This document shows, piece by piece, positions 5,617-54,452 of a DNA stretch of 64,000 nt; positions within the stretch are counted from its first letter, which is position 1, and each line of letters opens with the position of its first letter. The position numbers were made by a program, and so were the translations under genes. The notes beneath the pieces were generated by a model, which was not told where the DNA came from, searched no databases, and was given only the letters and a program-made list of their open reading frames with translations. The stretch is from Patescibacteria group bacterium UBA2196 (lineage in GTDB: Bacteria; Patescibacteriota; Patescibacteriia; UBA2196), in assembly GCA_002328025.1 (NCBI GenBank), contig DCVE01000013.1, positions 42,579-106,578 of the forward strand. The letters are read 5' to 3'.

Positions 5617-5990
5617 AAGGGGTGGGTGAGCAATCGCCCTAATATCCGCTAATTGGTGGATTGTTGGGGAGGAAAGTCCGGACGCCACACAAAGGATAGT
5701 TCTGAAACAGAACCGAGCATAAGAAATACAAGAAAAATAAGTTACGATCGTTTTATTTTTCTTGGTCAATTTTAAAACTCCGAGCAAGCGCCACAGAAAA
5801 TAAACCGCCTTGTTAGTTAAAAGACTCACGAGGTAAGGATGAAACCGCGGTGTAAGAGACCACGCGCTTCTATGGTGACATAGATTTGGGTAAGCCTTAT
5901 CCGGCGCAAGTCCCTTTAAAAGGACGCGTTAGATAGATGATTGCATTCCGTTTAGACGGAAACAGAATCCGGCTTATGATCCCACCCTTT
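5617..5990 (+). ncRNA. rnpB: RNase P RNA (bacterial type A)
   Basis: conserved P4 strands GGAGGAAAGTCCGGAC and AACAGAATCCGGCTTA; terminal P1 pairing AAGGGGTGGG/CCCACCCTT; GC-rich in an AT-rich background; no ORF. Confidence 0.85.
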
Positions 5991-6012
5991 GGATATATAA
6001 GAATTTTAATTT

Positions 6013-22736: not shown

Positions 22737-22758
22737 TGAGTGCATGTAAAAGTTTTTA

Positions 22759-22800
22759 CGCCGTGACCTTACAATTTACAAACAGGTCACGGTTTTTTAT
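22759..22800 (+). terminator. intrinsic terminator
   Basis: CCGTGACC-16 nt loop-GGTCACGG followed by T6. Confidence 0.5.
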
Positions 22801-22828
22801 TTTTTATAAAAATGATATAATATATTTA

Positions 22829-25191: not shown

Positions 25192-26193
25192 ATGTTTAGA
25201 CAATCATTGCTTAAAAAAATTAAAAAAAGTGGTTTAATCGGTCGTGGCTGCAATAATTTTTTGGTGGCTGAAAAATGGGAAATGGTAAAGCGTGTAAAAG
25301 GCGCGGAAAAGTTCGTGGTGTGTAATATTTCCGAATCAGAGCCGGGTATATTTAAAGATAAATATATTTTGGAAAAATGGCCACAATTGGTGTTGGATGG
25401 TATTAATTTAGCCATGCATGAAATTAAAGCTAAAAAAGGTTTTGTCTATCTAAATCCACTGTATTATGGTGAATTTCAAGCCAGTCTGGAACAAATAATT
25501 TTAAAAAATAATTATAGTATCGAATTATTTGAGAAGCCCTTGCACGACTATGTGGGTGGAGAAGAAACAGCGGTTTTAAACTCTATGCAAGGTTTGAGAG
25601 TTGAGCCGCGCTTAAAACCACCCTATCCAACCAAAGTTGGTTTTTATGGTGCGCCGACACTAATTCACAACTGTGAAACTTTTTATGCCGTGTCTCTAAC
25701 AAATTCTGGTGTTTATAAAAATACTCGTTTTTATTGTTTGTCTGGTGTTGATAGAGCAAATGATGTAAAAGAATTAGCAACTGATTTAACGGTTCGTGCG
25801 GTTTTACAAGAATTTGATCATACACCAAGCGTTGATTTTTTTTATCAAGTTGGCGGAGGAGCGGCTGGTTTTTGTTATAATTACAAGCAATTGAATCGTA
25901 AATTTGAAGGCTCTCCAGCCATTATTATTTATAAAAACAATGATTCTGAACAGGCAATTGTGATGAAATGGTTGGATTTTTTTCGTAAAGAATCTTGTGG
26001 TCAGTGTGTGCCATGTCGGGAGGGAACTTTTCGTTTGCGTAATTTGATGTATACATATTATCAAGGTGGAAAACTTGATAAAAAAGCTTTTGATGATTTA
26101 ATTTTGTCATTACAAAAAACTAGCTTATGTGCTTTGGGAAGAACTGCTACAAATGCCGTGGTTTCGTATTTTAAAAACGTAAAAGGAATATGA
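25192..26193 (+). CDS. NuoF-like flavoprotein subunit (hydrogenase diaphorase-type, short)
   Basis: GGEETAVLNSMQG (NuoF GEETALL motif); CGQCVPCREG N3 4Fe-4S motif; FMN motif degenerate (GRGCNNF); translationally coupled to hydA. Confidence 0.75.
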   Translation: MFRQSLLKKIKKSGLIGRGCNNFLVAEKWEMVKRVKGAEKFVVCNISESEPGIFKDKYILEKWPQLVLDGINLAMHEIKAKKGFVYLNPLYYGEFQASLEQIILKNNYSIELFEKPLHDYVGGEETAVLNSMQGLRVEPRLKPPYPTKVGFYGAPTLIHNCETFYAVSLTNSGVYKNTRFYCLSGVDRANDVKELATDLTVRAVLQEFDHTPSVDFFYQVGGGAAGFCYNYKQLNRKFEGSPAIIIYKNNDSEQAIVMKWLDFFRKESCGQCVPCREGTFRLRNLMYTYYQGGKLDKKAFDDLILSLQKTSLCALGRTATNAVVSYFKNVKGI

Positions 26194-28139
26194 AAAAAAT
26201 AAAATTTTATATTAATAATAAAGAATATACTGCTTTGGAAAATGATTCTGTTTTGGACGTGGCTTTACGAGAAGGACTAAATGTTCCGCATTTGTGTAAA
26301 CATCCGGATTTGGCCATTAAAGGTAATTGTCGTTTGTGTTTGGTACAAGTGGAAAATAAAGGTGTGGTGACAGCCTGTTCGACTGTGGTGGAAAAAGGGA
26401 TGCAAATTTTTTTAGAAACCGAAGAAGTTAAAAGCTTACGCAAGACAAATTTGGAGCTTATTTTTTCTGAACATCAGGAAAAGTGTGCCACTTGTTTGTA
26501 CCAAGATAATTGTCAAATATTAAAATATGCAGCTGAATTTGGTATAAAAATTTCGCGTTTTGAAGACAGAAAAAAACATTATTCAACCTGGCAGTTTGGT
26601 GATTCCATACGGTTTGATAGTTCTAAATGTATTGATTGTCGAAATTGTGTGGAAGTTTGCGATAAACAAGCCTGTAGTTTTTATGAAATTGCAGAAAGAG
26701 GAGTTGAAACAATCATTAAACCCAAAGGAGAAGTTGGTGGAATTACCTCCCCCCACCCCCTCCTTCTAAAGGAGGGGAGCTTAGATCTGTTAAAAAATGA
26801 TGTAGATAAATTTGATTGTACTTATTGTGGGCAATGTGTGACACATTGTCCGGTGGGAGCAATTAGCGGGGTATCGCATTGGGAGGAAGTTGAAAAATTA
26901 TTAAAAGATCGAGCTGGAAAAATTTTGGTTGTTGAAATTGCTCCGTCTATTCGTGTCTCTATTGGTGAAGAGTTTAATGAACCATACGGTAAGATTGTGA
27001 CTGGGCAATTAGCGGCTTCTATGAAAGCTTTGGGGTTTGATTATGCTTTTGATGTCAATTTGGGTGCCGATTTTACCACTTATGAGGAAGCACAAGAAGT
27101 GGTGGAAATGGTTTTGAATAATAAATCGCGTCCATTATTTACTTCGTGTTGTCCGGCGTGGGTAAAATTTGTTGAATTTTATTATCCGGAATTTATTGCC
27201 CATTTGACTAGTGCTAATTCACCGCACATGTGTTCTGGACCAATTATTAAAACCTATTTTGCCGATTATTTAAAAAAAGATCCACGCGATATTGTGGTGG
27301 TTTCAATTATGCCGTGTACCTCAAAAAAACATGAAATTAATTTAGAGACGCACACCATTGATTTGGGTTGGTGTTTGGAAAGATTGGATTTACCTAACAT
27401 TAAAAATATTTGTCCGGATAGAAAACAACTACAGGGCGTAAAAATAAAAGCCGTGGATTATGTTTTAACCACGCGTGAATACGCCCATCTTTTGCATAAA
27501 CACAAGATTGATTTATCAAAACTTAAAGCAGAAAAATTAGACAAACCTTTGGGCGTCTATTCTGGTGCCGGAGCAATTTATGGCGCGACCGGTGGAGTTA
27601 TGGAATCAGCTCTTAGAAGCGCGGATTATTTTTTCCGAGTCTGGGATGAAACCGATTCATTAAAATCAGTGGTCAAAGGAGAAAATTATAAATTGAAAAA
27701 GAAAAGATTTTCTAAATTATTACAAAGTCGCATTGAGTTTAAAGAAGTGCGTGGTCAAAATGGAATTAAAGAAGCCAGGGTAAAGGTGGGGGGGCGTAAG
27801 TTAAATGTTGCGGTCGTTAATGGTTTGGGTAATGCTAAAAAAATTTTGGATGACCTTAAAGCCGGTAAGGTAAAATATGATTATGTGGAGGTTATGGCCT
27901 GCCCGGGTGGTTGTATTGGTGGTGGTGGTCAGCCCATTCCGACTAATTCAAAAATTAGAGCCCAACGCGCCAACGCAGTTTATGAAATTGATAAAAACTT
28001 AGCCATTCGTACAGCTCACGAAAATCCAAGTCTTTTGGAGGTGTATAATAAATATTTTAAGGGTGATAAAGAAATAATTGAAAAAGTTTTACACAGTAAA
28101 TTTAAGGTTAAACAAAAAACAGGATATACGATAGTATAA
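26190..28139 (+). CDS. hydA: [FeFe] hydrogenase catalytic subunit with N-terminal 2Fe-2S and 4Fe-4S ferredoxin domains
   Basis: H-cluster motifs TSCCPAW (L1), MPCTSKKHE (L2), EVMACPGGCIGGGGQP (L3); CIDCRNCVEVC and CTYCGQCVTHCP ferredoxin motifs. Confidence 0.85.
   Translation: MKKIKFYINNKEYTALENDSVLDVALREGLNVPHLCKHPDLAIKGNCRLCLVQVENKGVVTACSTVVEKGMQIFLETEEVKSLRKTNLELIFSEHQEKCATCLYQDNCQILKYAAEFGIKISRFEDRKKHYSTWQFGDSIRFDSSKCIDCRNCVEVCDKQACSFYEIAERGVETIIKPKGEVGGITSPHPLLLKEGSLDLLKNDVDKFDCTYCGQCVTHCPVGAISGVSHWEEVEKLLKDRAGKILVVEIAPSIRVSIGEEFNEPYGKIVTGQLAASMKALGFDYAFDVNLGADFTTYEEAQEVVEMVLNNKSRPLFTSCCPAWVKFVEFYYPEFIAHLTSANSPHMCSGPIIKTYFADYLKKDPRDIVVVSIMPCTSKKHEINLETHTIDLGWCLERLDLPNIKNICPDRKQLQGVKIKAVDYVLTTREYAHLLHKHKIDLSKLKAEKLDKPLGVYSGAGAIYGATGGVMESALRSADYFFRVWDETDSLKSVVKGENYKLKKKRFSKLLQSRIEFKEVRGQNGIKEARVKVGGRKLNVAVVNGLGNAKKILDDLKAGKVKYDYVEVMACPGGCIGGGGQPIPTNSKIRAQRANAVYEIDKNLAIRTAHENPSLLEVYNKYFKGDKEIIEKVLHSKFKVKQKTGYTIV
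26757..26777 (+). repeat. perfect 9-bp palindrome CCCCTCCTT-CTA-AAGGAGGGG inside hydA (in-frame)
   Basis: seen directly; same element as at 41611-41631 in alaS. Confidence 0.6.
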
Positions 28140-30764: not shown

Positions 30765-32384
30765 ATGTCGCATAAAAATTTAAAACAATTCAAACAAAGT
30801 CCGCTAGTGATGGTAATTTTAGATGGCTGGGGAATTAATAAGGCCTATAACGGGAATGCCATTACTGGGGCTAGTGTACCAGTATTTGATACACTCTGGA
30901 AAAATTATCCACACACGGAGTTGTGTGCCTCTGGCAGGTGTGTGGGCTTGCCAGCCATGCAGGATGGTAATTCAGAAGCTGGTCATTTTAATTTGGGTGC
31001 GGGTCGAATTGTTGATCAAGATACTCTGATGGTTTCTAAGGCTATTAGCAGTGGACTTTTTTTTAAAAATCCAGCCCTTAAAGCCAGTCTTAAACATTTA
31101 AAAAGAACTGGTGGTAGTTTGCATTTAATGGGATTGCTATCAGGTTGGCAATCGGCGCACGCGGATCCAGATCATCTTTTGGCATTGCTGACATTTTATC
31201 GCCAAGAAGGTGTAAAGGAAATTTTTTTACATCTTTTTACTGACGGTCGTGATTCTTATCGTTTTGGTGCGTTAGATTTTTTAAAAAAGATAAGAAAAGA
31301 AATGCGTGGTGGTGAAAAAATTGCTACAATTTGTGGTCGTTATTATGCCATGGATAGAAAAAAACAATGGGATCGTATAGAAAAGACATATCAGGCCATA
31401 GTTGCAGGTAAAGCTGTATATTATTCCAAAACAGCTGAAGAAGCCATTAAGCAGGCTTATGATCGTGGTGAGAGTGATGAATTTATTGTGCCAACCGTGA
31501 TGGTTACTGGTGGTAAATGTGATAGTAAGGGTGTGTGTACGGGTGGTAAACCAATTACGGAAATTAAAAACGGTGATGCTGTAGTTTTTTTTAACCTAAG
31601 ATCTGATCGCGCCAGAGAGCTAACTAAGACTTTTGTACAAGCGGATTTTAATAAGATGAATGTGGGGTCTTTTGTACGTACTCGGATTTTGAAAGATTTA
31701 TTGTTTGTTTCCATGACTGATTTTGGACCTGATTTAGACAGTATCTTAACTGCTTTTCCGTCGCAAAATTTAAAAAATACATTACCCATGGTTTTGGCTG
31801 ATATGCGACAACTGTATATTGCGGAAAATGAAAAATACGCCCATGTAACATATTTTTTTAATGGTGGTTATGCTGATCCACTGAATGGTGAAGATAGAAT
31901 AATGATTCCGTCGTTAGATGTATCATCATATGATTTACAACCAGAAATGTCAGCTTTGAAGATCACTGAAAAAGTTGTGAGTGATTTGAAAAATAATAAA
32001 TATGATTTTATTTTAGTTAATTTTGCCAATCCAGATATGGTGGGGCACACTGGTAATTTGGCTGCCGGTATTAAGGCTTGTGAAACAGTGGATACTTGTG
32101 TGGGTAAGATTTTAAAAATTTTGACAGAAAAAGAAGGTATTTTATTAGTGACGGCAGATCATGGTAATGTGGAAGAAATGATTGATGAAAAAACAGGCAA
32201 GATAGACACCCAGCATTCTTCTTTCCCTGTACCGTTTATTATTGCTGACAAAAGAATAAAAAATATAAAAAATTATAAGTTAAAAAATAAAGGTATTTTG
32301 GCCAATGTGGCGCCGACAATTTTAGATTTATTGGGTAAAACGAAACCCAGAGAGATGACAGAAACCTCACTTATAGTTCATTAA
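30765..32384 (+). CDS. gpmI: 2,3-bisphosphoglycerate-independent phosphoglycerate mutase (copy 1)
   Basis: MVILDGWG...GNSEAGH (catalytic Ser); ADHGN C-terminal metal site. Confidence 0.85.
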   Translation: MSHKNLKQFKQSPLVMVILDGWGINKAYNGNAITGASVPVFDTLWKNYPHTELCASGRCVGLPAMQDGNSEAGHFNLGAGRIVDQDTLMVSKAISSGLFFKNPALKASLKHLKRTGGSLHLMGLLSGWQSAHADPDHLLALLTFYRQEGVKEIFLHLFTDGRDSYRFGALDFLKKIRKEMRGGEKIATICGRYYAMDRKKQWDRIEKTYQAIVAGKAVYYSKTAEEAIKQAYDRGESDEFIVPTVMVTGGKCDSKGVCTGGKPITEIKNGDAVVFFNLRSDRARELTKTFVQADFNKMNVGSFVRTRILKDLLFVSMTDFGPDLDSILTAFPSQNLKNTLPMVLADMRQLYIAENEKYAHVTYFFNGGYADPLNGEDRIMIPSLDVSSYDLQPEMSALKITEKVVSDLKNNKYDFILVNFANPDMVGHTGNLAAGIKACETVDTCVGKILKILTEKEGILLVTADHGNVEEMIDEKTGKIDTQHSSFPVPFIIADKRIKNIKNYKLKNKGILANVAPTILDLLGKTKPREMTETSLIVH

Positions 32385-32395
32385 TTTTAATTTTT

Positions 32396-33994
32396 ATGCA
32401 TGTAGATAATAATTTAAAAGATACAAGACCCAAACCGGTGATGCTTGTAATTTTGGATGGTTGGGGTGTGGCGCCAGCTTTAATTAGTAATGCTATTACG
32501 CAGGCTAAAACACCCAATTTTAATAAATACGTGCAACAGTATTTTAGTACGACCTTGCAAGCTTCAGGTGAAGCGGTGGGTTTGCCGTTTGGTGAAATGG
32601 GTAATTCCGAGGTCGGTCATTTAAATATTGGTGCTGGCAAAATTGTATTTCAAGAATTACCACGCATAAATAAAGCTATTTTGGAAGGCAAATTTTTTGA
32701 AAATTCAATTTTAATTAAAGCTTGTTTAGCCGCTAAAAAAAATAAAAGTACTTTGCATATAGTTGGTTTAATCTCAACTGGTGGGGTGCATGCTTCAGTA
32801 GATCATCTTTATGCGTTGTTGGAGCTTGCTAAAAAACAACAGCTAAAAAATGTTTTTGTACATGCTATTTTGGATGGACGTGATATGGGTTATAATTCTG
32901 GTTTAGATTTATTGCGTCAGGTGAAAAAAAAAATGCAGGAGATTGGCGTAGGTAAAATTGCCACAGTGTGCGGTCGTTTTTGGGCCATGGATCGTGATAA
33001 CCATTGGGAACGTATAAGTGAAGCCTACCAGGCCATGGTTTATGGAATGGCAGAATTTAAGGGCGAGGATATCTTTGAAATTATACAAACAGCATATGAA
33101 GGTGGGGTTTATGATGAAGAATTAAAACCAATAGTGTGTTTGGACACAATTGCTCAACCTTTGGCCACAATTAAAGATAAAGATGCGGTGATATTTTTTA
33201 ATTTTCGTGCTGATCGTGCTAGAGAATTGACGCGTGCTTTTGTGTTGCCGGGTTTTGAAAAATTTAGGCGTGTGGAGTATCTAGCCAATTTATATTTTGT
33301 GACCATGACACAATATGAAAAACAATTACCTGTGGATGTGGCTTTTCCACCCGAGCATATTACTATGCCGCTGGCAAAAGTTTTAAGTGGACAGGGTTTG
33401 AAACAGTTACACATAGCCGAGACTGAAAAATACGCGCACGTAACATGTTTTTTTAACGGCGGCTTAGAAGAGACGTTGCCGGGTGAATATAGAATTTTAG
33501 TTCCATCACCGCGAGTGGAAAGTTATGCTGAAAAACCAGAAATGTCCGCTGGCGAAATAAAAAACAATTTAATTAAGGAAATCGCTAACAATAAGTTTGA
33601 TTTTATAGTTGTTAATTTTGCCAATCCGGATATGGTCAGTCATACAGGTGATCAAAAAGCTACTGTCAAAGCTTTGGAAAAAGTTGATAAATGTGTGGGT
33701 GAAATTGTGGAGGCGGTTTTAGCTTATGGCGGCGTGACTTTAATAACCGCAGACCATGGTAACGCCGAGTGTTTGGTGAATGATAAAACTGGTGAAATTA
33801 ATAAAGAACACTCTACCGCCCCAGTGCCTTTTTTAATTGTTGGGCAGGCCTTCAAAAGTCAATATATTGGTGAAGAAACAGTGGATTTGACATTACTAAC
33901 ACCTTCAGGGGTGTTGGCCGATATCGCGCCGACCATTTTAAAAATTATGCAAATTGAACAACCTAAAGAAATGACCGGTAGAAGTTTAATTTAG
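32396..33994 (+). CDS. gpmI: 2,3-bisphosphoglycerate-independent phosphoglycerate mutase (copy 2, tandem paralog)
   Basis: LVILDGWG...GNSEVGH; ADHGN; clearly homologous to copy 1 but divergent. Confidence 0.85.
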   Translation: MHVDNNLKDTRPKPVMLVILDGWGVAPALISNAITQAKTPNFNKYVQQYFSTTLQASGEAVGLPFGEMGNSEVGHLNIGAGKIVFQELPRINKAILEGKFFENSILIKACLAAKKNKSTLHIVGLISTGGVHASVDHLYALLELAKKQQLKNVFVHAILDGRDMGYNSGLDLLRQVKKKMQEIGVGKIATVCGRFWAMDRDNHWERISEAYQAMVYGMAEFKGEDIFEIIQTAYEGGVYDEELKPIVCLDTIAQPLATIKDKDAVIFFNFRADRARELTRAFVLPGFEKFRRVEYLANLYFVTMTQYEKQLPVDVAFPPEHITMPLAKVLSGQGLKQLHIAETEKYAHVTCFFNGGLEETLPGEYRILVPSPRVESYAEKPEMSAGEIKNNLIKEIANNKFDFIVVNFANPDMVSHTGDQKATVKALEKVDKCVGEIVEAVLAYGGVTLITADHGNAECLVNDKTGEINKEHSTAPVPFLIVGQAFKSQYIGEETVDLTLLTPSGVLADIAPTILKIMQIEQPKEMTGRSLI

Positions 33995-40403: not shown

Positions 40404-40431
40404 TTGACAAGTTTTTTAGAATCATTATAAT
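40404..40431 (+). promoter_or_regulatory. sigma70-like promoter
   Basis: TTGACA-16-TATAAT immediately after the murF stop. Confidence 0.45.
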
Positions 40432-40765: not shown

Positions 40766-42751
40766 ATGACTTCCAAAGAATTGCGTCAAAGATATATTGA
40801 GTTTTTTAAAAAAAATGGGCATGTAGAAATTCCCAGTGCTTCTTTGATTCCGGAAAATGACCCTTCTATTCTTTTTACCACTGCTGGTATGAGTCCACTC
40901 GTGCCATTTCTTTTAGGTGAAAAACATCCGGCTGGCAATAAATTAGTTAATTCGCAAAAATGTATTAGAACAGGTGACATTGATGGTGTTGGTGATGCTT
41001 GCCACCATACTTTTTTTGAAATGTTGGGTCATTGGAGTTTGAATGATTATTTTAAAACTGAAGCCATTGAATTGACTTATAAATTTATTACTGAAGATTT
41101 AAAAATAGATCAAAAATATCTGGCCGTTTCTGTTTTTGTTGGAGATAATGATGCGCCGTTTGATGCCGAAAGTTATCAAAAATGGCAAGAGCTGGGTTTT
41201 TCTGAAAAAAGAATTACTAAATTACCCAAAAAAGATAATTGGTGGGAATTGCCTGGAAATTCTGGGCCGTGTGGGCCAGATACAGAAATGTTTTATTGGA
41301 CTGGGGACAAAAATTCTGTGCCAGAAGTTTTTGATCCGCAAAATAAAAATTGGGTAGAAATTGGCAATGATGTTTTGATGCAATATGAAAAAATTGGCGA
41401 AAACAAATATCAACCTGCCAAACAAAAAAATATTGATAATGGCACAGGTTTGGAAAGACTTTTAGCAGTTATGAACGGTCTTGATGATAATTATCAAACA
41501 GATTTATTTTTACCAATAATTGAGGAAATTGAAAAGTTAAGCGGGAAAAAATATACCCCTCTGTCCGCAGTAGCGGACTCCTCCCCTTATCAAGGGGAGG
41601 ATAAGAACATCCCCTCCTTTCTAAGGAGGGGCCTCACGACGGAGTCGGAGGGGGAGATAAAATCAATGCGTATTATCGCCGACCATTTGCGCGCGGCCAC
41701 TTTTATCATGGCTGATCCGGCTGGTATTGCGCCTTCAAACACAGATCAAGGCTATGTGGTTAGAAAGTTAATTCGTCGAGCTATTCGTCATGGTAAATTA
41801 ATTGGCATTGATCAGAATTTTTGTGTTGAAATTGCTGAAGTAGTAATTAATAATATGCAGGATATTTATGCAGAACTAGAAACTAATAAAAAATTTGTTT
41901 TAGATAATATAAATTTAGAAGAAGAAAAATTTAGAAAAACATTGCAAGACGGAGAAAAGAAATTAAATAAAATTTTTGATAAGGTTGAAATATTTGAAGA
42001 AATGGAGGAAGGTGACAAACTAGAAACTTATAATTTTGCTGATTACAGTGGTTTAGGTAAAGACTTTTTTGTCTTATCTTCCGAATATGGTTATCCTTTG
42101 GAATTAAGTTTAGAAGCTTTGGATGAAAAAAAAGAGAGATTAGGTGATGGTAAAATACCAAAAGAGGAAAAAGAAAAAATACAACGGAAATTTGATGATT
42201 TTAAAGAAAAAGTGATTAAAAGTTATAATATTGAAATGCAAAAACATCAAGATCTTTCGCGCACTGCCAGCGCTGGCAAATTTAAAGGTGGCTTAGCCAA
42301 TCAAAGCGAAATGGCTGTTAAATACCATACTGTTTCGCATTTATTATTGCAAGCTTTAAGAATGGTCTTGGGCGAACATGTTTTTCAAAAAGGTTCTAAC
42401 ATTACCGACGAAAGATTGCGTTCAGATTTTTCTCATGGGGGAAAAATGACACCAGAACAAATTGTCCAAGTTGAAAACATAGTTAATGAACAAATACAAA
42501 AAAATTTAACAGTCGAATGTAATGAAATGAGTTTAGATGAAGCTAAAAATCAAGGCGCCATGGGAGTTTTTGCCAATAAATATGGTGAGCGAGTTAAGGT
42601 ATACACAGTTGGCGATGACCATTTTTGTTTTTCTAAAGAAATTTGTGGCGGACCACATGTAAAGAATACTGGCGAATTAGGCCATTTAAAAATAATAAAA
42701 GAGGAGGCCAGTTCAGCGGGCGTCAGAAGAATTAAAGCAATTTTAGAATAA
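40766..42751 (+). CDS. alaS: alanine--tRNA ligase (short form: catalytic plus editing domains, no C-Ala domain)
   Basis: class II motifs (FTTAGM, HHTFFEMLGHWS); editing-domain HxxxH / CGGPHV; only 661 aa; ~100-nt GC-rich palindromic insertion. Confidence 0.85.
   Translation: MTSKELRQRYIEFFKKNGHVEIPSASLIPENDPSILFTTAGMSPLVPFLLGEKHPAGNKLVNSQKCIRTGDIDGVGDACHHTFFEMLGHWSLNDYFKTEAIELTYKFITEDLKIDQKYLAVSVFVGDNDAPFDAESYQKWQELGFSEKRITKLPKKDNWWELPGNSGPCGPDTEMFYWTGDKNSVPEVFDPQNKNWVEIGNDVLMQYEKIGENKYQPAKQKNIDNGTGLERLLAVMNGLDDNYQTDLFLPIIEEIEKLSGKKYTPLSAVADSSPYQGEDKNIPSFLRRGLTTESEGEIKSMRIIADHLRAATFIMADPAGIAPSNTDQGYVVRKLIRRAIRHGKLIGIDQNFCVEIAEVVINNMQDIYAELETNKKFVLDNINLEEEKFRKTLQDGEKKLNKIFDKVEIFEEMEEGDKLETYNFADYSGLGKDFFVLSSEYGYPLELSLEALDEKKERLGDGKIPKEEKEKIQRKFDDFKEKVIKSYNIEMQKHQDLSRTASAGKFKGGLANQSEMAVKYHTVSHLLLQALRMVLGEHVFQKGSNITDERLRSDFSHGGKMTPEQIVQVENIVNEQIQKNLTVECNEMSLDEAKNQGAMGVFANKYGERVKVYTVGDDHFCFSKEICGGPHVKNTGELGHLKIIKEEASSAGVRRIKAILE
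41560..41660 (+). repeat. GC-rich palindromic insertion in alaS (hairpins at 41564-41577, 41580-41600, 41611-41631)
   Basis: CCTCCCCTT-ATC-AAGGGGAGG and CCCCTCCTT-TCT-AAGGAGGGG perfect 9-bp stems; in-frame (…SAVADSSPYQGEDKNIPSFLRRGLTTESEGEIKS…). Confidence 0.55.
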
Positions 42752-42761
42752 ATTTAAAAAT

Positions 42762-43970
42762 ATGGATTTTAAAAATATACACCCACAAAATAGTTATCGC
42801 ACTTTTACTCCAGCACCAACACCTCCAAGACGGTGGAAAAAAAAGTTGGCTTTTTTGGTTTTTTTGGCAGCGGTATTTTATGTTCTATTTGTATATATTT
42901 TACCAAGTGTAGAAGTGACAGTTTTTTTATCAGCGGAAAATTTTGATAAAGAATATGATATAACTTTGGATCAAAACGTAAGTGGTGAGGTAACGGCTGG
43001 GAATGTTTTTCCAGCTAAGTTTTATCAAGTTTCTGGTGAAGATCGGGGTAACTTTAAGGCCACAGGACAAAAAAATACCGGTGATAAAGCCAGTGGTAAT
43101 GTTACTTTTTATAATTTTACTGGACGCTCACAACCAGTTACCAAAGAAATGGAGCTTAAACACAGTTCTGGTCAGATTTATTTTTTAAAAAATGAATTGA
43201 CTATTCCAGCCGCTCAAATTTCTGATCTGGGAGAAATAGTCGCTGGCAAGATTATTGGTGAGATTGAAGCCCAAGAGGCTGGTGAAGTTTACAATCAAAA
43301 ACCAGGTCGGGTGGTCATTCCCATTGTGGCCAATGAAATTCAGGATAAAATTTATGGTGAAACAGATGACTTGGGTGGCGGAACATCAAAAATTACTCAG
43401 GTTGTTTCACAGGAAGATTTAAACAACGCGCAAATTGATTTATCTAATAGACTGTCACCTAAATTAAAAGATAAAATTAAAAATCAAATTAAAAAAGACA
43501 GTGAGATAATGCGCAACGAATTAACGATCTTGGAGATAGATAATGTGGATAAAAGCACTGAAATTAATAAGGAAGTGTCTGACTTTGAAATGAAAATTAA
43601 TGCGACACTTAAGGCCTTGGTTTATGATGAAGTGGTATTAAAAAAATACTTGAAATCTAAAATACTTTTGGATTTACCAGATAATAAGATGGTGGCTGAA
43701 GACGATTTAGGACAATTGGAAATTACAGTCAAGGAGATGGATCTGGCTTTGGGGGTGGTAAAAATTAAGGTTAGGGCGCAACATAAAGTTTTACCCAAGA
43801 CGGATGTAAGCGTTATCAAGGACAGTATAAAAGGCTTAAAAGAGCAGGATGCGCGTCGTTATGTGTTAAGTTTGCCGAACGTGCGCGATGCGCGGTTTGT
43901 GTTCACTTATAATTTACTTGACAAAATACCCAATAATTTGAATAAAATTAAGATAAAGGTTGGAAATTAA
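42762..43970 (+). CDS. hypothetical protein, N-terminal TM anchor
   Basis: ORF track; Pro-rich N-term then TM, then soluble domain. Confidence 0.5.
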   Translation: MDFKNIHPQNSYRTFTPAPTPPRRWKKKLAFLVFLAAVFYVLFVYILPSVEVTVFLSAENFDKEYDITLDQNVSGEVTAGNVFPAKFYQVSGEDRGNFKATGQKNTGDKASGNVTFYNFTGRSQPVTKEMELKHSSGQIYFLKNELTIPAAQISDLGEIVAGKIIGEIEAQEAGEVYNQKPGRVVIPIVANEIQDKIYGETDDLGGGTSKITQVVSQEDLNNAQIDLSNRLSPKLKDKIKNQIKKDSEIMRNELTILEIDNVDKSTEINKEVSDFEMKINATLKALVYDEVVLKKYLKSKILLDLPDNKMVAEDDLGQLEITVKEMDLALGVVKIKVRAQHKVLPKTDVSVIKDSIKGLKEQDARRYVLSLPNVRDARFVFTYNLLDKIPNNLNKIKIKVGN

Positions 43971-43977
43971 AGCCCTC

Positions 43978-44006
43978 TTGACAGATATTTAACCATACTT
44001 TATAAT
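43978..44006 (+). promoter_or_regulatory. consensus sigma70 promoter of the infA-ribosomal protein operon
   Basis: TTGACA-17-TATAAT; ~125-nt 5' UTR. Confidence 0.55.
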
Positions 44007-44134: not shown

Positions 44135-44491
44135 ATGTCAGAAAACACACTTAGTCAAAACGTTAATAATCAAGTTGATGAAACGCCAGAAATCCCGGCG
44201 GCAGAAGTTTTGCCGGTTGTTGAACCTAATCAGGTTCAAAATCAGACACCCCAAGATAGTTTTAATAATTTTAAAGTTAACAAAAAGGGTTTTATTGAGG
44301 TGGACGGTGAGGTGATAGAAACCTTGCCCAGTATTACCTTTAGGGTGCGTTTGGAAAATAATTATCAAGTGGTGGCCAGATTATCCGGTCGCATGCGGAT
44401 GAATAAAATTATGCTTTTGCCGGGTGATAAAGTTAAAGTGGAACTAACACTCTACGATTTGACAAAAGGCAGAATAACTTATCGTTATTAA
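44135..44491 (+). CDS. infA: translation initiation factor IF-1 with ~45 aa N-terminal extension
   Basis: S1-like core [22 protein letters not shown]...KGRITYRY. Confidence 0.8.
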
Positions 44492-44497
44492 ATTTTT

Positions 44498-44614
44498 ATG
44501 AAGGTAAAATCTTCGGTTAAAAAAATTTGTAAAGATTGTCAAACTGTACGTCGTAAAAACAGAGTTTTTGTGGTGTGCAAAAAAAATCCTAAACACAAAC
44601 AAAGACAGGGTTAA
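44498..44614 (+). CDS. rpmJ: 50S ribosomal protein L36
   Basis: [38 protein letters not shown] (38 aa); found manually, below the ORF-track cutoff. Confidence 0.85.
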
Positions 44615-44626
44615 TTATATTTTTTT

Positions 44627-45016
44627 ATGGCTAGAATTGCCGGTATCAATTTACCTAATGATAAGAAAGTTGAATACGCCTTGCCGTATCTTTATGGCAT
44701 TGGTTTAACAATTTCAAAGAAAATTTTAAAGGAATTAAAAATTGATGACAACAAACGAGTCAAAGATCTTTCTGAAGAGGAGGTTAATTCTTTGCGGGTG
44801 GAAATTGAAAAAAAATATCGCGTGGAAGGTGAGCTACGCCGTGAAGTAATTTCTAATATCAAAAGATTAAAAGAAATTAATTCTTATCGTGGTTCAAGAC
44901 ACGCCAAGAATTTACCAGCCAGAGGTCAACGCACCAAAACCAATTGCCGGACCGTCAAAGGTAATGTGCGCAAAACCATGGGTTCGGGTCGCAAAACTTC
45001 GGCGCAGAAAACCTAA
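44627..45016 (+). CDS. rpsM: 30S ribosomal protein S13
   Basis: [10 protein letters not shown]. Confidence 0.9.
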
Positions 45017-45047
45017 TTAGTATACTTATTTAATAAATATCAATACA

Positions 45048-45587
45048 ATGTCTACTGATGATAATAAAATTATAACTGATGAATTAGCTCAGCCAAAAGA
45101 TTCTATCAATGAGGTTGATTTAGAACAGGTGGCTCAAGATGGGGACGTGGCTGTTGAGGTTGTTGATGATAATGGAATTGTAGAAGAAAAAACCGTTGTT
45201 ACCAAAGGGAGAAAAAAGAAAAAGAAAGAACCTTTTTTGCGTGGTGGACGTGGTCAAATTCATATTAAATCATCTTATAACAACACCATTGTTACCATTA
45301 CTGATTTAAATGGTTCGGTTTTAGCTTGGTCTTCAGCTGGTAAGTGTGGTTTTAAGGGTCCTAAAAAATCAACACCATACGCGGCTGGTGTGATTGTTAA
45401 ATCTTTGGTTGATAAAATTAAAGCTTTGGGCATTAAAGAAACTGACGTCGAAGTTAAAGGTGTTGGTATGGGTCGTGAGGCAGCGGTGCGCGCTTTGGGC
45501 GCAAATGGCGTGCAGGTGGTGTCAGTAAAAGATGTAACACCGGTCAAACACGGTGGTGTAAGATCAAAACGTCCCAGAAGAGTTTAA
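45048..45587 (+). CDS. rpsK: 30S ribosomal protein S11 (N-terminal acidic extension)
   Basis: GQIHIKSSYNNTIVTITDLNG core. Confidence 0.9.
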   Translation: MSTDDNKIITDELAQPKDSINEVDLEQVAQDGDVAVEVVDDNGIVEEKTVVTKGRKKKKKEPFLRGGRGQIHIKSSYNNTIVTITDLNGSVLAWSSAGKCGFKGPKKSTPYAAGVIVKSLVDKIKALGIKETDVEVKGVGMGREAAVRALGANGVQVVSVKDVTPVKHGGVRSKRPRRV

Positions 45588-45613
45588 TTATTTTGTGATT
45601 TAATTTTTTATTT

Positions 45614-46246
45614 ATGTCTCATTTTTCTGGTGCACAATGCAAAAGATGTCGTAGATTGGGAGTCAAGCTTTGCTCTAAAGGCGAGCGTGGTTTGGGTTCT
45701 AAATGTGCTTTGGCCAGAAGAAATTATCCACCTGGTGTGCATGGTCCAAAGGGTTATGGTCGAATTAGCGATTATGGTTTGCATTTGCAAGAAAAACAAA
45801 AATTAAGAGTGATTTACGGAATTATGGAAAAACAGTTGCGTAAGTATTTTGAGGAAGCCAAAAGAGAAAAAACCAACACCGGTTTTAAATTATTAGAATT
45901 ATTAGAAAGACGTTTTGATAATATTATTTATCGTTTAGGTTTGGCATCTTCCAGACGTCAGGCTAGGCAGATGGTGGGGCATAATCATTTTAAAGTTAAT
46001 GGCAAAAAAATGAATATTCCCTCTTACACAGTCAAAAGAGGCGATGTAATTAGTATTGCCAAAGAAAAATCTTTAACCAAGGGTCAAATTGCCGAGAACA
46101 TAAAGACAATGGCCAAAAAAGAAATTCCAGTTTGGTTATTTTGGGATGAACAAAATAAAAAAGGCCAAGTTGTCGAATTACCGCAAAATAATGATTTGGA
46201 TGTTGGTGTGGACACCCGTTTAATTGTGGAATTTTATTCACGCTAA
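45614..46246 (+). CDS. rpsD: 30S ribosomal protein S4
   Basis: CxxC zinc motif near N-terminus; S4 domain. Confidence 0.9.
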   Translation: MSHFSGAQCKRCRRLGVKLCSKGERGLGSKCALARRNYPPGVHGPKGYGRISDYGLHLQEKQKLRVIYGIMEKQLRKYFEEAKREKTNTGFKLLELLERRFDNIIYRLGLASSRRQARQMVGHNHFKVNGKKMNIPSYTVKRGDVISIAKEKSLTKGQIAENIKTMAKKEIPVWLFWDEQNKKGQVVELPQNNDLDVGVDTRLIVEFYSR

Positions 46247-46269
46247 ATTTATAAAATAAATATAAATAT

Positions 46270-47109
46270 ATGGAAAACATCCCATTGGCAAAAAAAATAA
46301 CTTTTCATCCTGATACGGAAAACTATGCCAAAAACAAAGGTTATTTTACTATTGAACCGCTGTTTCCCGGTTATGGTTTAACTTTGGGTAATGTTTTAAG
46401 ACGAGTGTTGCTATCATCTTTATCAGGCGCGGCCATTGTGGCGGTTAAAATTAATGGTGTTAGTCATGAATTTTCCACAATTGATTGGATCAAAGAGGAT
46501 GTCTTGGATATTATTTTAAATTTAAAACAGATTAGAATTAAGGTTGGTCCAGAGGTGGATTTTCCGCTCAAATTAACTTTGAGCGTCAAGGGTCAAAAAG
46601 AAGTTACGGCCGGTGATTTTGAAAAAATGGCCGGACTTGAAGTTATTAATACAGATCAAAAAATTGCCACCCTAACCGACCACGCGGCACGTTTAGAAAT
46701 GGAAGTTTATGTGGATTATGGTCGGGGTTATTTACCAACCGAAGCCAGAGAAAATAAAAATTATGAAATTAACACTATGATGGTGGATGCAATTTTTACA
46801 CCCATAAAAAGAGTTGGTTATGATATTGAAAATGTGCGTGTTTTGCAGATGACCAACTGGGATAAATTAATTTTAAAAATTGAAACTGACGGTACCATAA
46901 CCTGTGAAGACGCGTTTAAACAGGCGGTCAACATTATCTTGGAACAATTTTCTGGTTTATTAAATAAAGAAATAGCTGAGGATAATCACAAAAAAACAGT
47001 TGAAGCGCAAGCCCCAGACATGGTTGAAGATGAATCAGTGGATGACAACGAGTCAGATTCTGAAGAAAAGCCTAAAAAAAGAGGTAAAAAAAAGAAAGAT
47101 GAAGTTTAA
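46270..47109 (+). CDS. rpoA: DNA-directed RNA polymerase subunit alpha (NTD only; acidic/basic tail replaces alpha-CTD)
   Basis: alpha-NTD conserved; 279 aa; C-terminus ...DESVDDNESDSEEKPKKRGKKKKDEV with no helix-hairpin-helix. Confidence 0.8.
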   Translation: MENIPLAKKITFHPDTENYAKNKGYFTIEPLFPGYGLTLGNVLRRVLLSSLSGAAIVAVKINGVSHEFSTIDWIKEDVLDIILNLKQIRIKVGPEVDFPLKLTLSVKGQKEVTAGDFEKMAGLEVINTDQKIATLTDHAARLEMEVYVDYGRGYLPTEARENKNYEINTMMVDAIFTPIKRVGYDIENVRVLQMTNWDKLILKIETDGTITCEDAFKQAVNIILEQFSGLLNKEIAEDNHKKTVEAQAPDMVEDESVDDNESDSEEKPKKRGKKKKDEV

Positions 47110-47134
47110 TATAAAATTTAGTTAAAGAATTAAT

Positions 47135-47485
47135 ATGCGACACCAAAACAGTCAAAAAACACTGGATAGAAAAAGTGGTCCGCGCACAGCTTTGTTAAAA
47201 GGTTTGGCGCAGAGTTTAATTTTGTATGAAAAAATTCAAACCACCGAAGCCAAAGCCAAGGTTATAAAACCAGTGGTGGAAAAAATGATTACGCGCGCCA
47301 AGGTTGATTCATTGCACAATCGGCGTGAATTGATGAAGTTTTTACCAACCCAAAATGCAGTCAGAAAAATATTTGATGTTTTGGGCCCACGTTTTAAAGA
47401 ACGTAAGGGCGGTTATTTAAGAATTACTAAATTAGGTGCGCGTCAGGGTGATGCCGCACAAATGGCACAAATAGAATTTGTATAA
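47135..47485 (+). CDS. rplQ: 50S ribosomal protein L17
   Basis: MRHQNSQKTLDRKSGPR. Confidence 0.9.
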   Translation: MRHQNSQKTLDRKSGPRTALLKGLAQSLILYEKIQTTEAKAKVIKPVVEKMITRAKVDSLHNRRELMKFLPTQNAVRKIFDVLGPRFKERKGGYLRITKLGARQGDAAQMAQIEFV

Positions 47486-47490
47486 AATAT

Positions 47491-47838
47491 ATGGCAGAAA
47501 ACATTTACACAATTGATGCAACCAATAAAGCCGTGGGACGTTTGGCGACAGAAATCGCTATAATTTTGCGTGGTAAAAACAAGCCCACCTTTGCTCCCAA
47601 CATGGAAAGTGATAACATGGTAGTGGTTAAGAATATAAAGTTTTTGAAATTTACTGGTAAAAAATTACAGCAAAAGGTTTACAAACACCACACCAACTAT
47701 CCGGGTCATCTAAGAAGTATCAAGATGTCTGATATTCAAAAAGAAAACCCAGCCAAAGTTTTAGAAATGGCAGTTTTACGTATGTTACCTGCAGTAAAAT
47801 TTAGAAAAAAAATGATGCAGAAATTGAGTTTTGAATAA
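47491..47838 (+). CDS. rplM: 50S ribosomal protein L13 (short)
   Basis: ATNKAVGRLATEIA...GKNKPTF. Confidence 0.85.
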   Translation: MAENIYTIDATNKAVGRLATEIAIILRGKNKPTFAPNMESDNMVVVKNIKFLKFTGKKLQQKVYKHHTNYPGHLRSIKMSDIQKENPAKVLEMAVLRMLPAVKFRKKMMQKLSFE

Positions 47839-47857
47839 TTAAAAGTAAGCAATAAAT

Positions 47858-48271
47858 ATGTCAGAAAATAAATTAACTACAAAAGAATATTTTCAAGGTT
47901 TGGGTCGCCGCAAAGCAGCCATTGCTCAAGTTAGACTATATGCAGAAGGCACAGGCGAAACAACCATTAACGGTAAACAGGCTGATGTGTTTTTTCCTTA
48001 TTTTGAATTTAAAGATCAGGCTTTTTCTCCACTCAAAATTTTAGGTTTGGAAAAAAAGTTTGATATGTCAGTTAAAGTTGCGGGTGGCGGTTATAGAGGT
48101 CAGGCTGAAGCAATTAAATTGGGGGTGGCCAGAGCTTTGGTGGTTTTTAATGAAGAGAACAAAAAAGTTTTACGTGCCAGCGGATTTTTAAGTCGTGACC
48201 CCAGAATTAAAGAACGTAAGAAGCCGGGCTTGAAGCGCGCACGTCGTGCGCCACAGTGGGCAAAACGTTAA
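47858..48271 (+). CDS. rpsI: 30S ribosomal protein S9
   Basis: GLGRRKAAIAQVRL...C-terminal KRARRAPQWAKR. Confidence 0.9.
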   Translation: MSENKLTTKEYFQGLGRRKAAIAQVRLYAEGTGETTINGKQADVFFPYFEFKDQAFSPLKILGLEKKFDMSVKVAGGGYRGQAEAIKLGVARALVVFNEENKKVLRASGFLSRDPRIKERKKPGLKRARRAPQWAKR

Positions 48272-48324: not shown

Positions 48325-48353
48325 TTGACATTTTTATTAAACTGTGTTATAAT
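48325..48353 (+). promoter_or_regulatory. consensus sigma70 promoter (extended -10) driving the GC-rich island
   Basis: TTGACA-17-TGtTATAAT. Confidence 0.5.
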
Positions 48354-48402: not shown

Positions 48403-49585
48403 GTGATTTCTTTGTCTCGTCAGATGAATTGCATTCAGTGGGTTCTGGTAGTTTTGGTGGTTGGATTGTTTATCTTTAACCACCGGGAAGTTATCGTAAA
48501 GCAGTACCGTGATAACACGCCCGTATTGACGAGCGAAGAAATCACGGAATTGGAAAACAATGTGGAAAAAGTATATGCCACGGCCAAAGAAAAAATAGAT
48601 GCCGAGACATATACACCGCTGGATTGGCAGCGGGATATCTATTTTTTAAAGTTAAAAATTATTCGTACCATGGGGGGGCACGTACAGCTCTGGGAGCTAT
48701 CGTTTCTATGAGCTGGCTGAAGAAGCCTATCAGTATACCATTGATAGGTATTACACCCCCAAGAGTGATGATCCAAAAAGAACATTGTTTTTTCAGCAAG
48801 AGGTTAACAATGCTCAGGCTCAAGTCATGGCGGAAAACAATGAAAGGGTTGACTGGGCTAAAATATTTAGCCAGCTTCATCTGTTCATGCTGGCTTTTCT
48901 GCCATATTCTTTGCTGATCGTCCTTATTCGCCGTTCAGCAAGATATAAATTATGGCAGATATATTCGGCCGGAGATATCGTCTGGGTCATAATTGCGATT
49001 GGCTTGAGCGTTTTTGGGGCCATCGCTTACCGCCCCGACAATTTCATCCAGAAGCGCGTTGATTCGCAACTGCAAATCTGGAAGGAAAGAATCGGTGCAA
49101 GAGGTTGGCGTTTGGCTTTGGCGTATTTGGTGGCGATTGTTATTTCTTTGGCCACTTTATTTCGCCCGGCCAAATCGCAGGCCCAGACAGTAGTCGAGAC
49201 CAAGATTGTTAGTATGGTCCCAGCTGCCACCATCGCCAATCAACAGGAAGAATCCGACGAGCAGCAAGTTTTTTTCCCAGAAAAGATCGTCGGATTTTTG
49301 CGGAGATTTTTTGAAGAAATTATGAAGGGGATTGAGACTGTTGTTTACAGTTTATTTTCTCTTCTTATTATCCATTTTTTTTCTCCTCCGCTAGAGTTTG
49401 TCTGGGGGATGTGGGCCAGGCCACCAGATGATATTCGTCTTTGGACGATCCGAGCCCTTGGTTCTCGCGCTCCTGCGAATTTTGTTCAATTTAATTCACG
49501 AATTAATTGGACAAAAAACAAAGGAGTTTATCATGAGAACCAAAATTGTAGTTTTTATAATCTTGGCGCTTTTTGCTGTAGCTAG
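48403..49585 (+). pseudogene. polytopic membrane protein gene split by a frameshift at a G7 tract (48670-48676); GC-rich island
   Basis: frame 1 ORF 48403-48711 and frame 2 ORF (open from 48656 to 49585) join across GGGGGGG; both halves carry TM helices; the intermediate ORF 48624-48917 is an out-of-frame artefact. Confidence 0.45.
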
Positions 49586-52985: not shown

Positions 52986-53039
52986 AATTCCTCCTTGTGG
53001 ATATGAATATTTTTTTATATTATACGCTATTTAAAAATT

Positions 53040-53759
53040 ATGTCAAGACTATCTGTTATCATTCCGGTTTATAATAATGCAAAAAATTTGTTAAAGTGTC
53101 TGCAAAGTTTGCAACAGCAGACAATTTTTGGTTTGTGGCCACAACAGGTGGAAATAATAGTTGTGGATGATGGAAGTATTTCTCCAATTGTCATTCCAGA
53201 TTTTATTCTGGATGATAAAATAAAAACATATCACATTGCACACGCGGGTGCAGCCAAGGCCAGAAATTTTGGTTTTGCCAAATCCACTGGCCAATATATT
53301 TTTTTCTGTGACAGCGATGTGGTTTTTTTAAAAAATAATGCTTTAGAAAAAATGCTAGCCATGTTGGAAACACACACAGACAAAGGATATTGTTATGCAG
53401 CTTTTAAATATGGTTTAAAAACTTTTCCTCTTTTTCCATTTGACGCAGAAAAATTAAAACACAATAATTATATTTCCACCATGACTTTGGTTCGTCGTAG
53501 CGCTTTAGAAAAATTAGTTTTTCCCAATTTGCCTTTTGACGAAGCTTTAAAAAGATTTCAGGACTGGGATTTGTGGCTGGCTTTATTGGAAAAAGGGGAG
53601 ACAGGTGTTTTTTTAGATGAAGTTTTGTGGCAGGCGCAGGTTGGCGGTTCCATGAGCAAGTGGTTGCCAAAAATATTTTATAAATTATTTAAAAATAATT
53701 TAAAGGTGCAAGAGTATCAAAAAGCCAAAGCAACGATGGAAAAGAAATATGGTTTATAA
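53040..53759 (+). CDS. glycosyltransferase family 2
   Basis: LSVIIPVYNNAKNL...IIVVDDGS GT-A N-terminus; DSD motif. Confidence 0.75.
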   Translation: MSRLSVIIPVYNNAKNLLKCLQSLQQQTIFGLWPQQVEIIVVDDGSISPIVIPDFILDDKIKTYHIAHAGAAKARNFGFAKSTGQYIFFCDSDVVFLKNNALEKMLAMLETHTDKGYCYAAFKYGLKTFPLFPFDAEKLKHNNYISTMTLVRRSALEKLVFPNLPFDEALKRFQDWDLWLALLEKGETGVFLDEVLWQAQVGGSMSKWLPKIFYKLFKNNLKVQEYQKAKATMEKKYGL

Positions 53760-53819: not shown

Positions 53820-53848
53820 TTGACTTTTTTAAAATCTTTAAATATAAT
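53820..53848 (+). promoter_or_regulatory. consensus sigma70 promoter for the candidate ncRNA
   Basis: TTGACT-17-TATAAT. Confidence 0.45.
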
Positions 53849-54224: not shown

Positions 54225-54325
54225 ATTTGCTTTATATTGTTTTTTCTTTTAAAATTAGAGTGTATTTTGGGTTATTTGTTGGTTGGCCAGCGATATATAT
54301 TTAATAGTTAATTATTCATCTTTTT

Positions 54326-54397
54326 GCCCCCATCGTCTAATGGTTAGGACACATGGTTCTCAGCCATGTAATTGGGGTTCGATTCCCCATAGGGGTA
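54326..54397 (+). tRNA. tRNA-Glu (anticodon CUC)
   Basis: cloverleaf by eye: D-stem GTCT/GGAC; anticodon stem CATGG/CCATG with loop TTCTCAG; T-arm TGGGG-TTCGATT-CCCCA; acceptor has one C-A mismatch and a G-U pair; CCA not encoded. Confidence 0.65.
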
Positions 54398-54452
54398 AGA
54401 AGATGAATAGTTAATTGGGTGGTGTGAATTTTATTATCCGTGAATATTATTT

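Follow-up and report, generated by a model that had tools for sequence, protein, structure and literature searches.

The rpoA gene in a 64,000-nucleotide stretch of Patescibacteria group bacterium UBA2196 (assembly GCA_002328025.1, contig DCVE01000013.1, positions 42,579 to 106,578 of the forward strand; hereafter the window, in whose own numbering coordinates are given) almost certainly specifies, as a genuine and intact gene, an RNA polymerase (RNAP) alpha subunit made up of the alpha N-terminal domain (NTD) and a charged tail, an architecture without the alpha C-terminal domain (CTD). The CTD, a textbook component of bacterial transcription, is the part of alpha that recognizes UP-elements and on which class I activators dock, and Spx and NusA are among its other partners. 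In the surrounding clade the tail appears, from its alignment, to be an acidic linker plus a canonical AT-hook (KPKKRGRPKK) about 4 residues from the C-terminus, the AT-hook being a small motif, seldom met in bacteria, that binds in a groove of DNA. To the reading as a whole, that the window gene is a genuine, functional one of a Patescibacteria (Candidate Phyla Radiation, CPR) lineage whose polymerase works without alpha-CTD and with the tail in the role proposed below, we attach a probability of about 0.5, and the odds that the tail of its product contacts DNA in that way strike us as even.

The gene and its product

rpoA (46270..47109, + strand, with an ATG start) encodes 279 amino acids and is positioned between rpsD and rplQ. 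This is the conserved order of an operon whose members, labelled from Pfam, are infA, rpmJ, rpsM, rpsK, rpsD, rpoA, rplQ, rplM and rpsI (44135..48271, +), and the same synteny is found in a sister genome (locus L084). Residues 1-232 (46270..46965) are the NTD, the platform for dimerization and for beta/beta' assembly, in which Pfam matches the Rpb3/RpoA dimerization family PF01193 at residues 29-227 (E = 2.2e-21) and the insert domain PF01000 at residues 59-177 (E = 2.9e-31). Some 47 residues lie beyond it, first an acidic linker (residues 233-266; 46966..47067) with 14 D/E to 3 K/R, and then a basic C-terminal patch, KPKKRGKKKKDEV (residues 267-279; 47068..47106), which comparison with relatives marks as a probable decayed AT-hook. 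The product ends in ...DESVDDNESDSEEKPKKRGKKKKDEV*, just as the initial annotation of this DNA had described it, and the end as translated from the open reading frame (ORF) at 46270-47109 is ...SDSEEKPKKRGKKKKDEV*. In an AF2 model built on a 50-sequence alignment, pLDDT is mostly above 90 for NTD residues ~20-230, falls to 44-56 from residue 231 onward and is below 50 at residues 239-265, the tail thus being predicted to be disordered.

The expectation in that annotation that the Pfam model RNA_pol_A_CTD would be absent proved correct, PF03118 having no match on the protein even at E<=10, and profile coverage likewise bears out its description of an alpha-NTD with a charged tail and nothing further. 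The two NCBIfam rpoA equivalogs recognize the protein (NF003519 with 281.4 bits against a cut-off of 277, and TIGR02027 with 258.9 against 227.8) and cover it only at profile positions ~13-231 of 298-320. Solved alpha subunits match just query residues ~15-235, which correspond to residues 15-234 of Escherichia coli alpha, and R45, L48 and K86 are the same in both. With these three residues conserved and 90% identity to the sister NTD, we infer that assembly of an alpha2-beta-beta' core is retained.

Might the absence of the domain be an artefact of assembly, of a sequencing frameshift in A-runs, or of decay to a pseudogene? The DNA encoding the tail does contain homopolymer runs, A7 and A8, and in a neighbouring gene (48403-49585) the reading frame is shifted when compared with that of the sister genome. 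Against this, the same ORF is present letter for letter in at least three independent assemblies (SRR943330, SRR942941 and SRR943332), and the sister rpoA (P0002, in L084, where the gene order is the same) is of equal length with the same stop at 84% identity, its tail differing by substitutions only, without indels. The architecture is moreover common to more than 100 homologs and the NTD is under strong conservation. The stop and the start of rplQ (47135) are just 25 nt apart, a gap into which a frameshifted CTD could not fit, and no CTD-like sequence was found in the other reading frames of the tail DNA. Truncation by frameshift, of which the initial annotation had seen no sign, was therefore rejected, and an artefactual origin of the gene can be regarded as already effectively refuted.

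A CTD split off and encoded separately, the finding that the annotation had said would overturn its view, was sought with a custom hidden Markov model (HMM) built from 15 CPR alpha-CTDs and that of E. coli. At E<=1e-3 this HMM detects the domain in E. coli alpha, in 15 of 120 homologs and at 47 of 80 related loci, missing none of the CTD-bearing homologs, and it gives E=12 for the window rpoA ORF. Translated in six frames, the 64 kb of the window gave no CTD (best E=0.8), and in 196 kb surrounding 33 further CTD-less rpoA genes no match had an E-value below 0.3. The other genes of the window include glycosyltransferases, glycolysis genes, an [FeFe]-hydrogenase, a dcw cluster with mraZ, alaS and a histidine kinase, and among these remaining genes there is no sigma factor, further RNAP subunit or CTD-like protein. 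That a helix-hairpin-helix protein resembling the alpha-CTD is encoded elsewhere in the genome and supplies the function in trans gains something from the reach of the search, which covered 64 kb where the contig carrying this rpoA has 281 kb. It is nevertheless very unlikely, given the lack of matches just described, that a split CTD would be untethered to the polymerase, and that the conserved C-terminal hook considered below points to replacement rather than relocation. Like an artefact, it is an unlikely explanation.

Loss of the domain across the lineage

Comparison with the rpoA of related CPR genomes, a check proposed along with the original description, places the gene in numerous company. 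The CTD is absent from 105 of the 120 closest homologs (237-303 aa), the 15 that possess it being of ~310 aa and Doudnabacteria-like. Among 80 loci from GTDB species representatives 33 have a CTD-less rpoA, carrying labels of Kuenen-, Veblen-, Uhr- and Falkowbacteria, some Moranbacteria and Paceibacterota, and the 47 with a CTD include Doudna-, Nomura-, Lloyd-, Azam-, Zambryski- and Saccharibacteria; both states occur among genomes labelled Moranbacteria and among those labelled Paceibacterota. In a set of 150 representatives at 50% identity the CTD is present in 83, and ~45 of the remaining 67 are CTD-less with charged tails, the rest of the 67 including obvious fragments and frameshifted models. 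The best identity of the window protein to any GTDB species representative is 63%. Database annotation gives every one of these proteins as plain 'DNA-directed RNA polymerase subunit alpha'.

Bootstrapped neighbour-joining trees of the NTD (60 replicates, from an alignment of ~200 columns) with parsimony on the CTD state require at least 8 gains or losses in 60 of 60 trees, the median being 12 as against 37 for shuffled states, with the caveat that a weakly resolved single-protein tree inflates such counts. A single loss was on this ground rejected, and the CTD-less architecture is lineage-wide, the domain having been lost several times independently.

Three alpha subunits in the database, from outside the window, have two NTDs per polypeptide. 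In P0121 the second is an exact internal repeat of the first, and assembly error is the probable cause. In the others, P0122 (NTD-NTD-CTD) and P0123 (NTD-CTD-NTD-CTD), the halves have diverged, a sign that some uncultured bacteria may have genuine alpha 'dimers' joined covalently.

The tails of relatives

In the tail alignment an exact R-G-R-P is present in 56 of the 105 CTD-less homologs, with the consensus EEKPKKRGRPKK (E-E-K-P-K-K-R-G-R-P-K-K-x-E). Its flanks are nearly invariant: of the 56, 50 have K at -1 and -2, 54 have K/R at +4 and 55 have K at +5. It lies 2-11 residues (mode 4) from the C-terminus. The linker ahead of it, of 21-64 aa and 31% Glu, is hypervariable and otherwise unalignable. 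The core RGRP is found at 7 of the 33 CTD-less loci. Pfam AT_hook (PF02178) aligns to exactly the hook residues, with 15.8 bits for an isolated tail and 11.8 for P0058; over relatives generally the range is 6.9-15.8 bits across profile positions 1-11 of 13, all of it below the cut-off of 17.4 bits, as is to be expected when a single 13-residue motif is scored. The codons used for the hook vary (AGG/AGA/CGC/CGA/CGT for Arg, GGT/GGA/GGC/GGG for Gly, CCT/CCC/CCA for Pro) among genomes of 33-54% GC, and, the hook being kept despite this synonymous turnover, its conservation is therefore at the level of the protein. Nor is it a general protein appendage in these genomes, an explanation that was rejected: in ~167,000 residues from + strand ORFs of at least 60 aa at the 80 operon loci, K-flanked RGRP is found only at the C-terminus of alpha, the other RGRP matches being in spurious out-of-frame ORFs of GC-rich genomes.

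A basic end is more widespread than the canonical hook. A basic patch is present within the last 20 residues of 101 of 138 CTD-less alphas and of just 3 of 62 that bear the CTD. K-rich ends without RGRP are found on CTD-less sequences which group with CTD-bearing, Paceibacteria-like alphas, and such ends in apparently independent CTD-less lineages suggest, as far as the sequences go, convergence. In composition the tails are segregated polyampholytes, with a median of 31% D+E and a median of 31% K+R, and their net charge is near zero (+1 for the hook class, -5 for the window protein).

The window's own copy

The patch in the window protein, KPKKRGKKKK, has R-G-K-K at its core in place of R-G-R-P, is flanked on both sides by K/R (KPKK-RGK-KKK) and lies in the segment that AF2 models as disordered. 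K273 (AAA, 47086-47088) occupies the position of the second Arg of RGRP, for which the sister gene has AGA, one transition apart. The core of the sister itself is RGRK, the change from Pro to Lys being common to the two. In the NTD tree the window sequence groups with the sister, P0002, and with P0003-P0010, whose cores are canonical RGRP. It would seem from this that the hook of the window gene is a recently decayed copy, the path having led from RGRP through RGRK to RGKK, and that an apt description for the gene is one with a basic patch derived from an AT-hook. Between the window and sister proteins identity is 90% for the NTD, 47% (16/34) for the linker, in which acidity is kept, and 77% (10/13) for the basic end, and from the last two figures the basic end appears to be more constrained than the linker.

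Promoters

Perfect matches to TTGACA-N16-18-TATAAT number 4 in the window where 0.07 would be expected, and all are intergenic at the heads of operons: 40404-40431 (+), 43978-44006 (+), 48325-48353 (+) and 53019-53046 (-), with sigma-70 consensus hexamers and spacers of 16 or 17 nt. The second (43978..44006, TTGACA-N17-TATAAT), which starts 8 nt after the preceding stop, is the predicted promoter of the rpoA operon, to which it is assigned by position only. Two of the four start 4-8 nt past the preceding stop and one follows a terminator hairpin. Around CTD-less rpoA genes there are 10 such promoters per 179 kb as against 4 per 261 kb around those with a CTD, a 3.7x difference (p ~0.03) that comes from small counts in 80 loci of related genomes and is suggestive of denser perfect promoters as compensation.

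Some neighbouring features belong here. The perfect promoter at 48325 points into 48403-49585, a stretch after rpsI in which there is no clean ORF and which is a frameshifted copy of a membrane-like protein of 391 aa without a Pfam family. That protein is intact in the sister (L084:5140-6315), and in the window its residues 1-92 are in one frame and 85-391 in another, as may be due to a pseudogene, to sequencing error or to a programmed event. Directly ahead of the promoter of the rpoA operon is an ORF of 402 aa (42762-43970), without a Pfam family and at the same position in the sister L084. The sole tRNA gene of the window, tRNA-Glu(CTC) (54325-54398, +), is downstream of a promoter with 11 of 12 consensus positions at 53820.

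What the tail may do

Two tails per polymerase would exit the alpha-NTD at the site where the CTD linker usually does, on the upstream face of the enzyme, and a disordered linker of ~35-45 residues with an AT-hook or basic patch at its end, two per enzyme, could reach the same upstream DNA as the CTD does elsewhere. On this proposal the tail would be a tethered contact of low specificity with AT-rich upstream DNA, a partial substitute for the contact between alpha-CTD and UP-element, and the docking of activators by the CTD would be a loss for which it does not compensate. The acidic linker may be a spacer, or may mask the basic end within the molecule in the manner of HMGA and CarD. In the window genome, binding by the decayed hook is probably electrostatic and little biased towards AT, and core hexamers close to perfect appear to be what promoter strength depends on, possibly a second compensation. 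Target DNA would be plentiful, as several intergenic regions of this genome have a GC content of 15-28% and W-tracts reaching 34 nt.

The initial annotation had guessed that the charged tail might be a surrogate nucleic-acid contact, and the guess gains comparative support from relatives in which the tail ends in what reads as a conserved AT-hook. Its further claim, that loss of the CTD implies no recognition of UP-elements, was too strong insofar as an AT-hook or basic patch could read AT-rich DNA, and stands better for the window protein, where the hook is degenerate and AT_hook has no match. It had also linked the loss to a near-absence of transcription factors in such genomes; genes for MraZ and for a 7TM histidine kinase are present in the window itself.

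Several points weigh against the tail having the proposed role. On the window tail Pfam AT_hook has no match at E<=10 and the GRP core is absent, and even in relatives the hooks stay under the Pfam cut-off. The tails of 23 of the 105 CTD-less homologs, among them that of the closest GTDB relative (L004), are acidic-only or near-absent, so that in some lineages a basic end is not obligatory. Richness in E and K is partly to be expected from purine-rich low-complexity DNA in an AT-rich genome. As for the DNA partner, two of the perfect promoters lie right against the coding sequence ahead of them, the window has ~6 confident intergenic promoters, too few for a test of A/T-tract enrichment upstream, and the contrast in promoter density carries the limits of small counts and relatedness already given.

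Much of this is what would be expected if the tail is a relic, a linker that drifted to E/K low complexity once genome reduction had deleted the CTD and has no DNA role, with a polymerase that does without upstream contacts and uses strong core promoters. The tails that are acidic-only or almost missing, a linker so variable that it has 47% identity between sister genomes, the degenerate core in the window, the charged low-complexity extensions that rpsK and infA of the same operon also have, and the enrichment of perfect consensus promoters all fit with it, as does the finding that the E. coli alpha-NTD alone is enough for assembly and basal transcription (PMC8321222). What drift leaves unexplained is that in 56 of 105 homologs an R-G-R-P flanked by K/R stands unvaried, its distance from the C-terminus fixed, and has outlasted synonymous codon turnover in genomes whose GC reaches 54%, that a basic patch closes 101 of 138 CTD-less alphas and just 3 of 62 with the CTD, and that identity is 77% in the basic end when that of the linker is 47%. 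This main rival, on the whole somewhat unlikely in our view, is thus argued against for the clade and is quite possible for the decayed copy in the window.

An improbable alternative is that the tail acts mainly elsewhere than on promoter DNA, its acidic block mimicking nucleic acid in the manner of the delta subunit, with effects on RNAP recycling and selectivity, or its basic end having a partner protein or RNA as its target. Binding of RNA is within the capacity of extended AT-hooks. No feature of the tails is as widespread as the acidic block, and delta, a folded NTD with a disordered acidic C-terminal region, does act in RNAP recycling (PMC7749165). The comparison with a delta-like polyanion is weakened by the near-neutral charge of the tails, +1 for the hook class and -5 for the window protein when delta has -47, and what is conserved is the basic hook, there being no conserved acidic motif.

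Contact with upstream DNA by the tail remains the reading we prefer to these, and it can be extended to a bolder one, which is tentative and which we are inclined to doubt: that in a large part of the Patescibacteria the core RNAP itself carries an AT-hook. On this view the CTD, folded and reading AT-rich UP-elements via the minor groove, would have been replaced several times by a disordered acidic linker with a basic patch at its end, in one large clade a hook for DNA of the same kind, with the hook a convergent minimal 'UP-element reader', the linker its autoinhibitory mask, and the window gene a decaying member showing the hook core to be dispensable where promoters are near consensus.

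Other features of the window

Two further proteins of the rpoA operon have N-terminal extensions. That of S11 (rpsK, 45048-45587) is of ~60 aa, acidic and then ...TKGRKKKKKEPF, without an RGRP hook, and is similar in its acidic-then-K-run form to the S11 extension at the related locus L004, the K-run being the ordinary basic N-terminus of S11 to which the acidic part is added. That of IF1 (infA, 44135-44491) is of ~45 aa and rich in N, Q, E and P. alaS (40766-42751) encodes 661 aa with the catalytic domain and the tRNA_SAD editing domain, the latter ending at residue 656. A typical bacterial AlaRS is of ~870 aa with a C-terminal C-Ala/DHHA1 domain, which the window product apparently does not have, and this is another instance of domain loss from a core information-processing protein.

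Directly after pgk and eno are tandem paralogous genes for cofactor-independent phosphoglycerate mutase (30765-32384 and 32396-33994; 539 and 532 aa). A 775-aa 7TM-receptor histidine kinase (22736-25063; HisKA_7TM, GAF, HisKA, HATPase) has no recognizable response regulator adjoining it, and after it, at 25192-28139, come a NuoF-like flavoprotein and an [FeFe]-hydrogenase of 649 aa. At 5618-5992 (+; 169.6 bits) there is a bacterial class A RNase P RNA. Besides the 402-aa ORF, those at 8629-10713 (-) and 21729-22736 (694 and 335 aa) have no Pfam family.

Comparison with known systems

How much of this was known? In E. coli, alpha truncated to residues 1-235 allows RNAP to assemble and to perform basal transcription, though not that activated through UP-elements or by class I activators (PMC8321222), work that passages in PMC10243135 and PMC8321222 credit to Igarashi and Ishihama (1991). 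Like the window protein, that truncate (the alpha-NTD, PDB 1BDF) has the domain for dimerization and beta/beta' assembly only. It is, however, a laboratory construct, whereas the window gene would represent a natural and lineage-wide state with a conserved bipartite charged tail. Natural loss of the CTD is documented for the extreme endosymbionts Hodgkinia and Tremblaya, with loss of UP-element recognition inferred, and is asserted in one sentence for Parcubacteria and Euglena plastids (PMC8321222); the source for the Parcubacteria statement, Nelson and Stegen 2015 (PMC4508563), does not refer to RNA polymerase in its main text. These cases are alike in being natural losses in reduced genomes. 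They differ in that only erosion is described, no replacement motif, and here the CTD-less state goes together with a conserved AT-hook or basic patch. In the literature searched we found no paper combining AT-hook with Patescibacteria, none combining it with 'Candidate Phyla Radiation', and none combining alpha subunit, C-terminal domain, RNA polymerase and Patescibacteria, and a recent perspective on the unexplored biology of Patescibacteria has no mention of RNA polymerase, promoters or transcription factors. Loss of the CTD is thus known in outline, and its replacement by acidic linker and AT-hook appears to be undescribed in that literature.

A major bacterial radiation that has repeatedly dispensed with the alpha-CTD is a natural experiment on the minimal bacterial RNA polymerase. 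If the tail does contact upstream DNA, some ~10 disordered residues that favour the same groove and the same bases would be able to stand in for a folded DNA-binding domain, and a core subunit would join the very short list of bacterial proteins with AT-hooks, CarD and WhiB7. The prediction of promoters and the expression of CPR genes in heterologous hosts would be affected too, as UP-like effects and dependence on activators should differ.

Of other proteins with charged disordered tails, the delta subunit (RpoE) of Firmicutes is alike in carrying a highly charged one on an RNAP subunit (PMC7749165). Delta is without homology to alpha, and its tail is a strong polyanion with a net charge of -47 in contrast to the near-neutral segregated polyampholytes of alpha. 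Eukaryotic HMGA has hooks with a P-R-G-R-P core and K/R flanks that are disordered when free, and in addition an acidic segment (PMC4482583). Core and flanks are matched by the consensus of the window's relatives, KPKKRGRPKK, in tails that likewise have an acidic segment, but HMGA has three hooks with its acidic tail C-terminal to them, and the window copy is without the GRP core.

Two bacterial factors also carry AT-hooks. In mycobacterial WhiB7 cryo-EM has shown the C-terminal AT-hook to occupy the minor groove where an AT-rich motif lies just upstream of the -35 (PMC10243135), and the hook, held on the holoenzyme via region 4 of sigma-A, activates transcription (PMC10243135; PMC8786299), structural proof that a hook on RNAP can function there. 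The likeness would be that of an AT-hook tethered to RNAP just upstream of -35; the difference is that WhiB7 is a regulated Fe-S transcription factor whose hook reads a specific motif at particular promoters, and alpha is a core subunit. CarD of Myxococcus xanthus has an HMGA-like C-terminal domain in which, as in the alpha tails, a disordered acidic segment is followed by basic RGRP hooks, and which, tethered to RNAP, binds upstream of promoters in minor groove that is AT-rich. Unlike the alpha tail, CarD is a factor of its own, bound to RNAP beta, with four hooks in ~140 residues, and the alpha tail has a single hook fused to a core subunit and present twice per enzyme. An HMGA-like domain is defined by an acidic segment and multiple RGRP repeats, and the window protein has the acidic segment but only one, decayed, basic motif; the resemblance to the CarD domain is functional and not one of family membership. 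Together CarD and WhiB7 provide the precedents that a hook tethered to RNAP can work upstream of a promoter.

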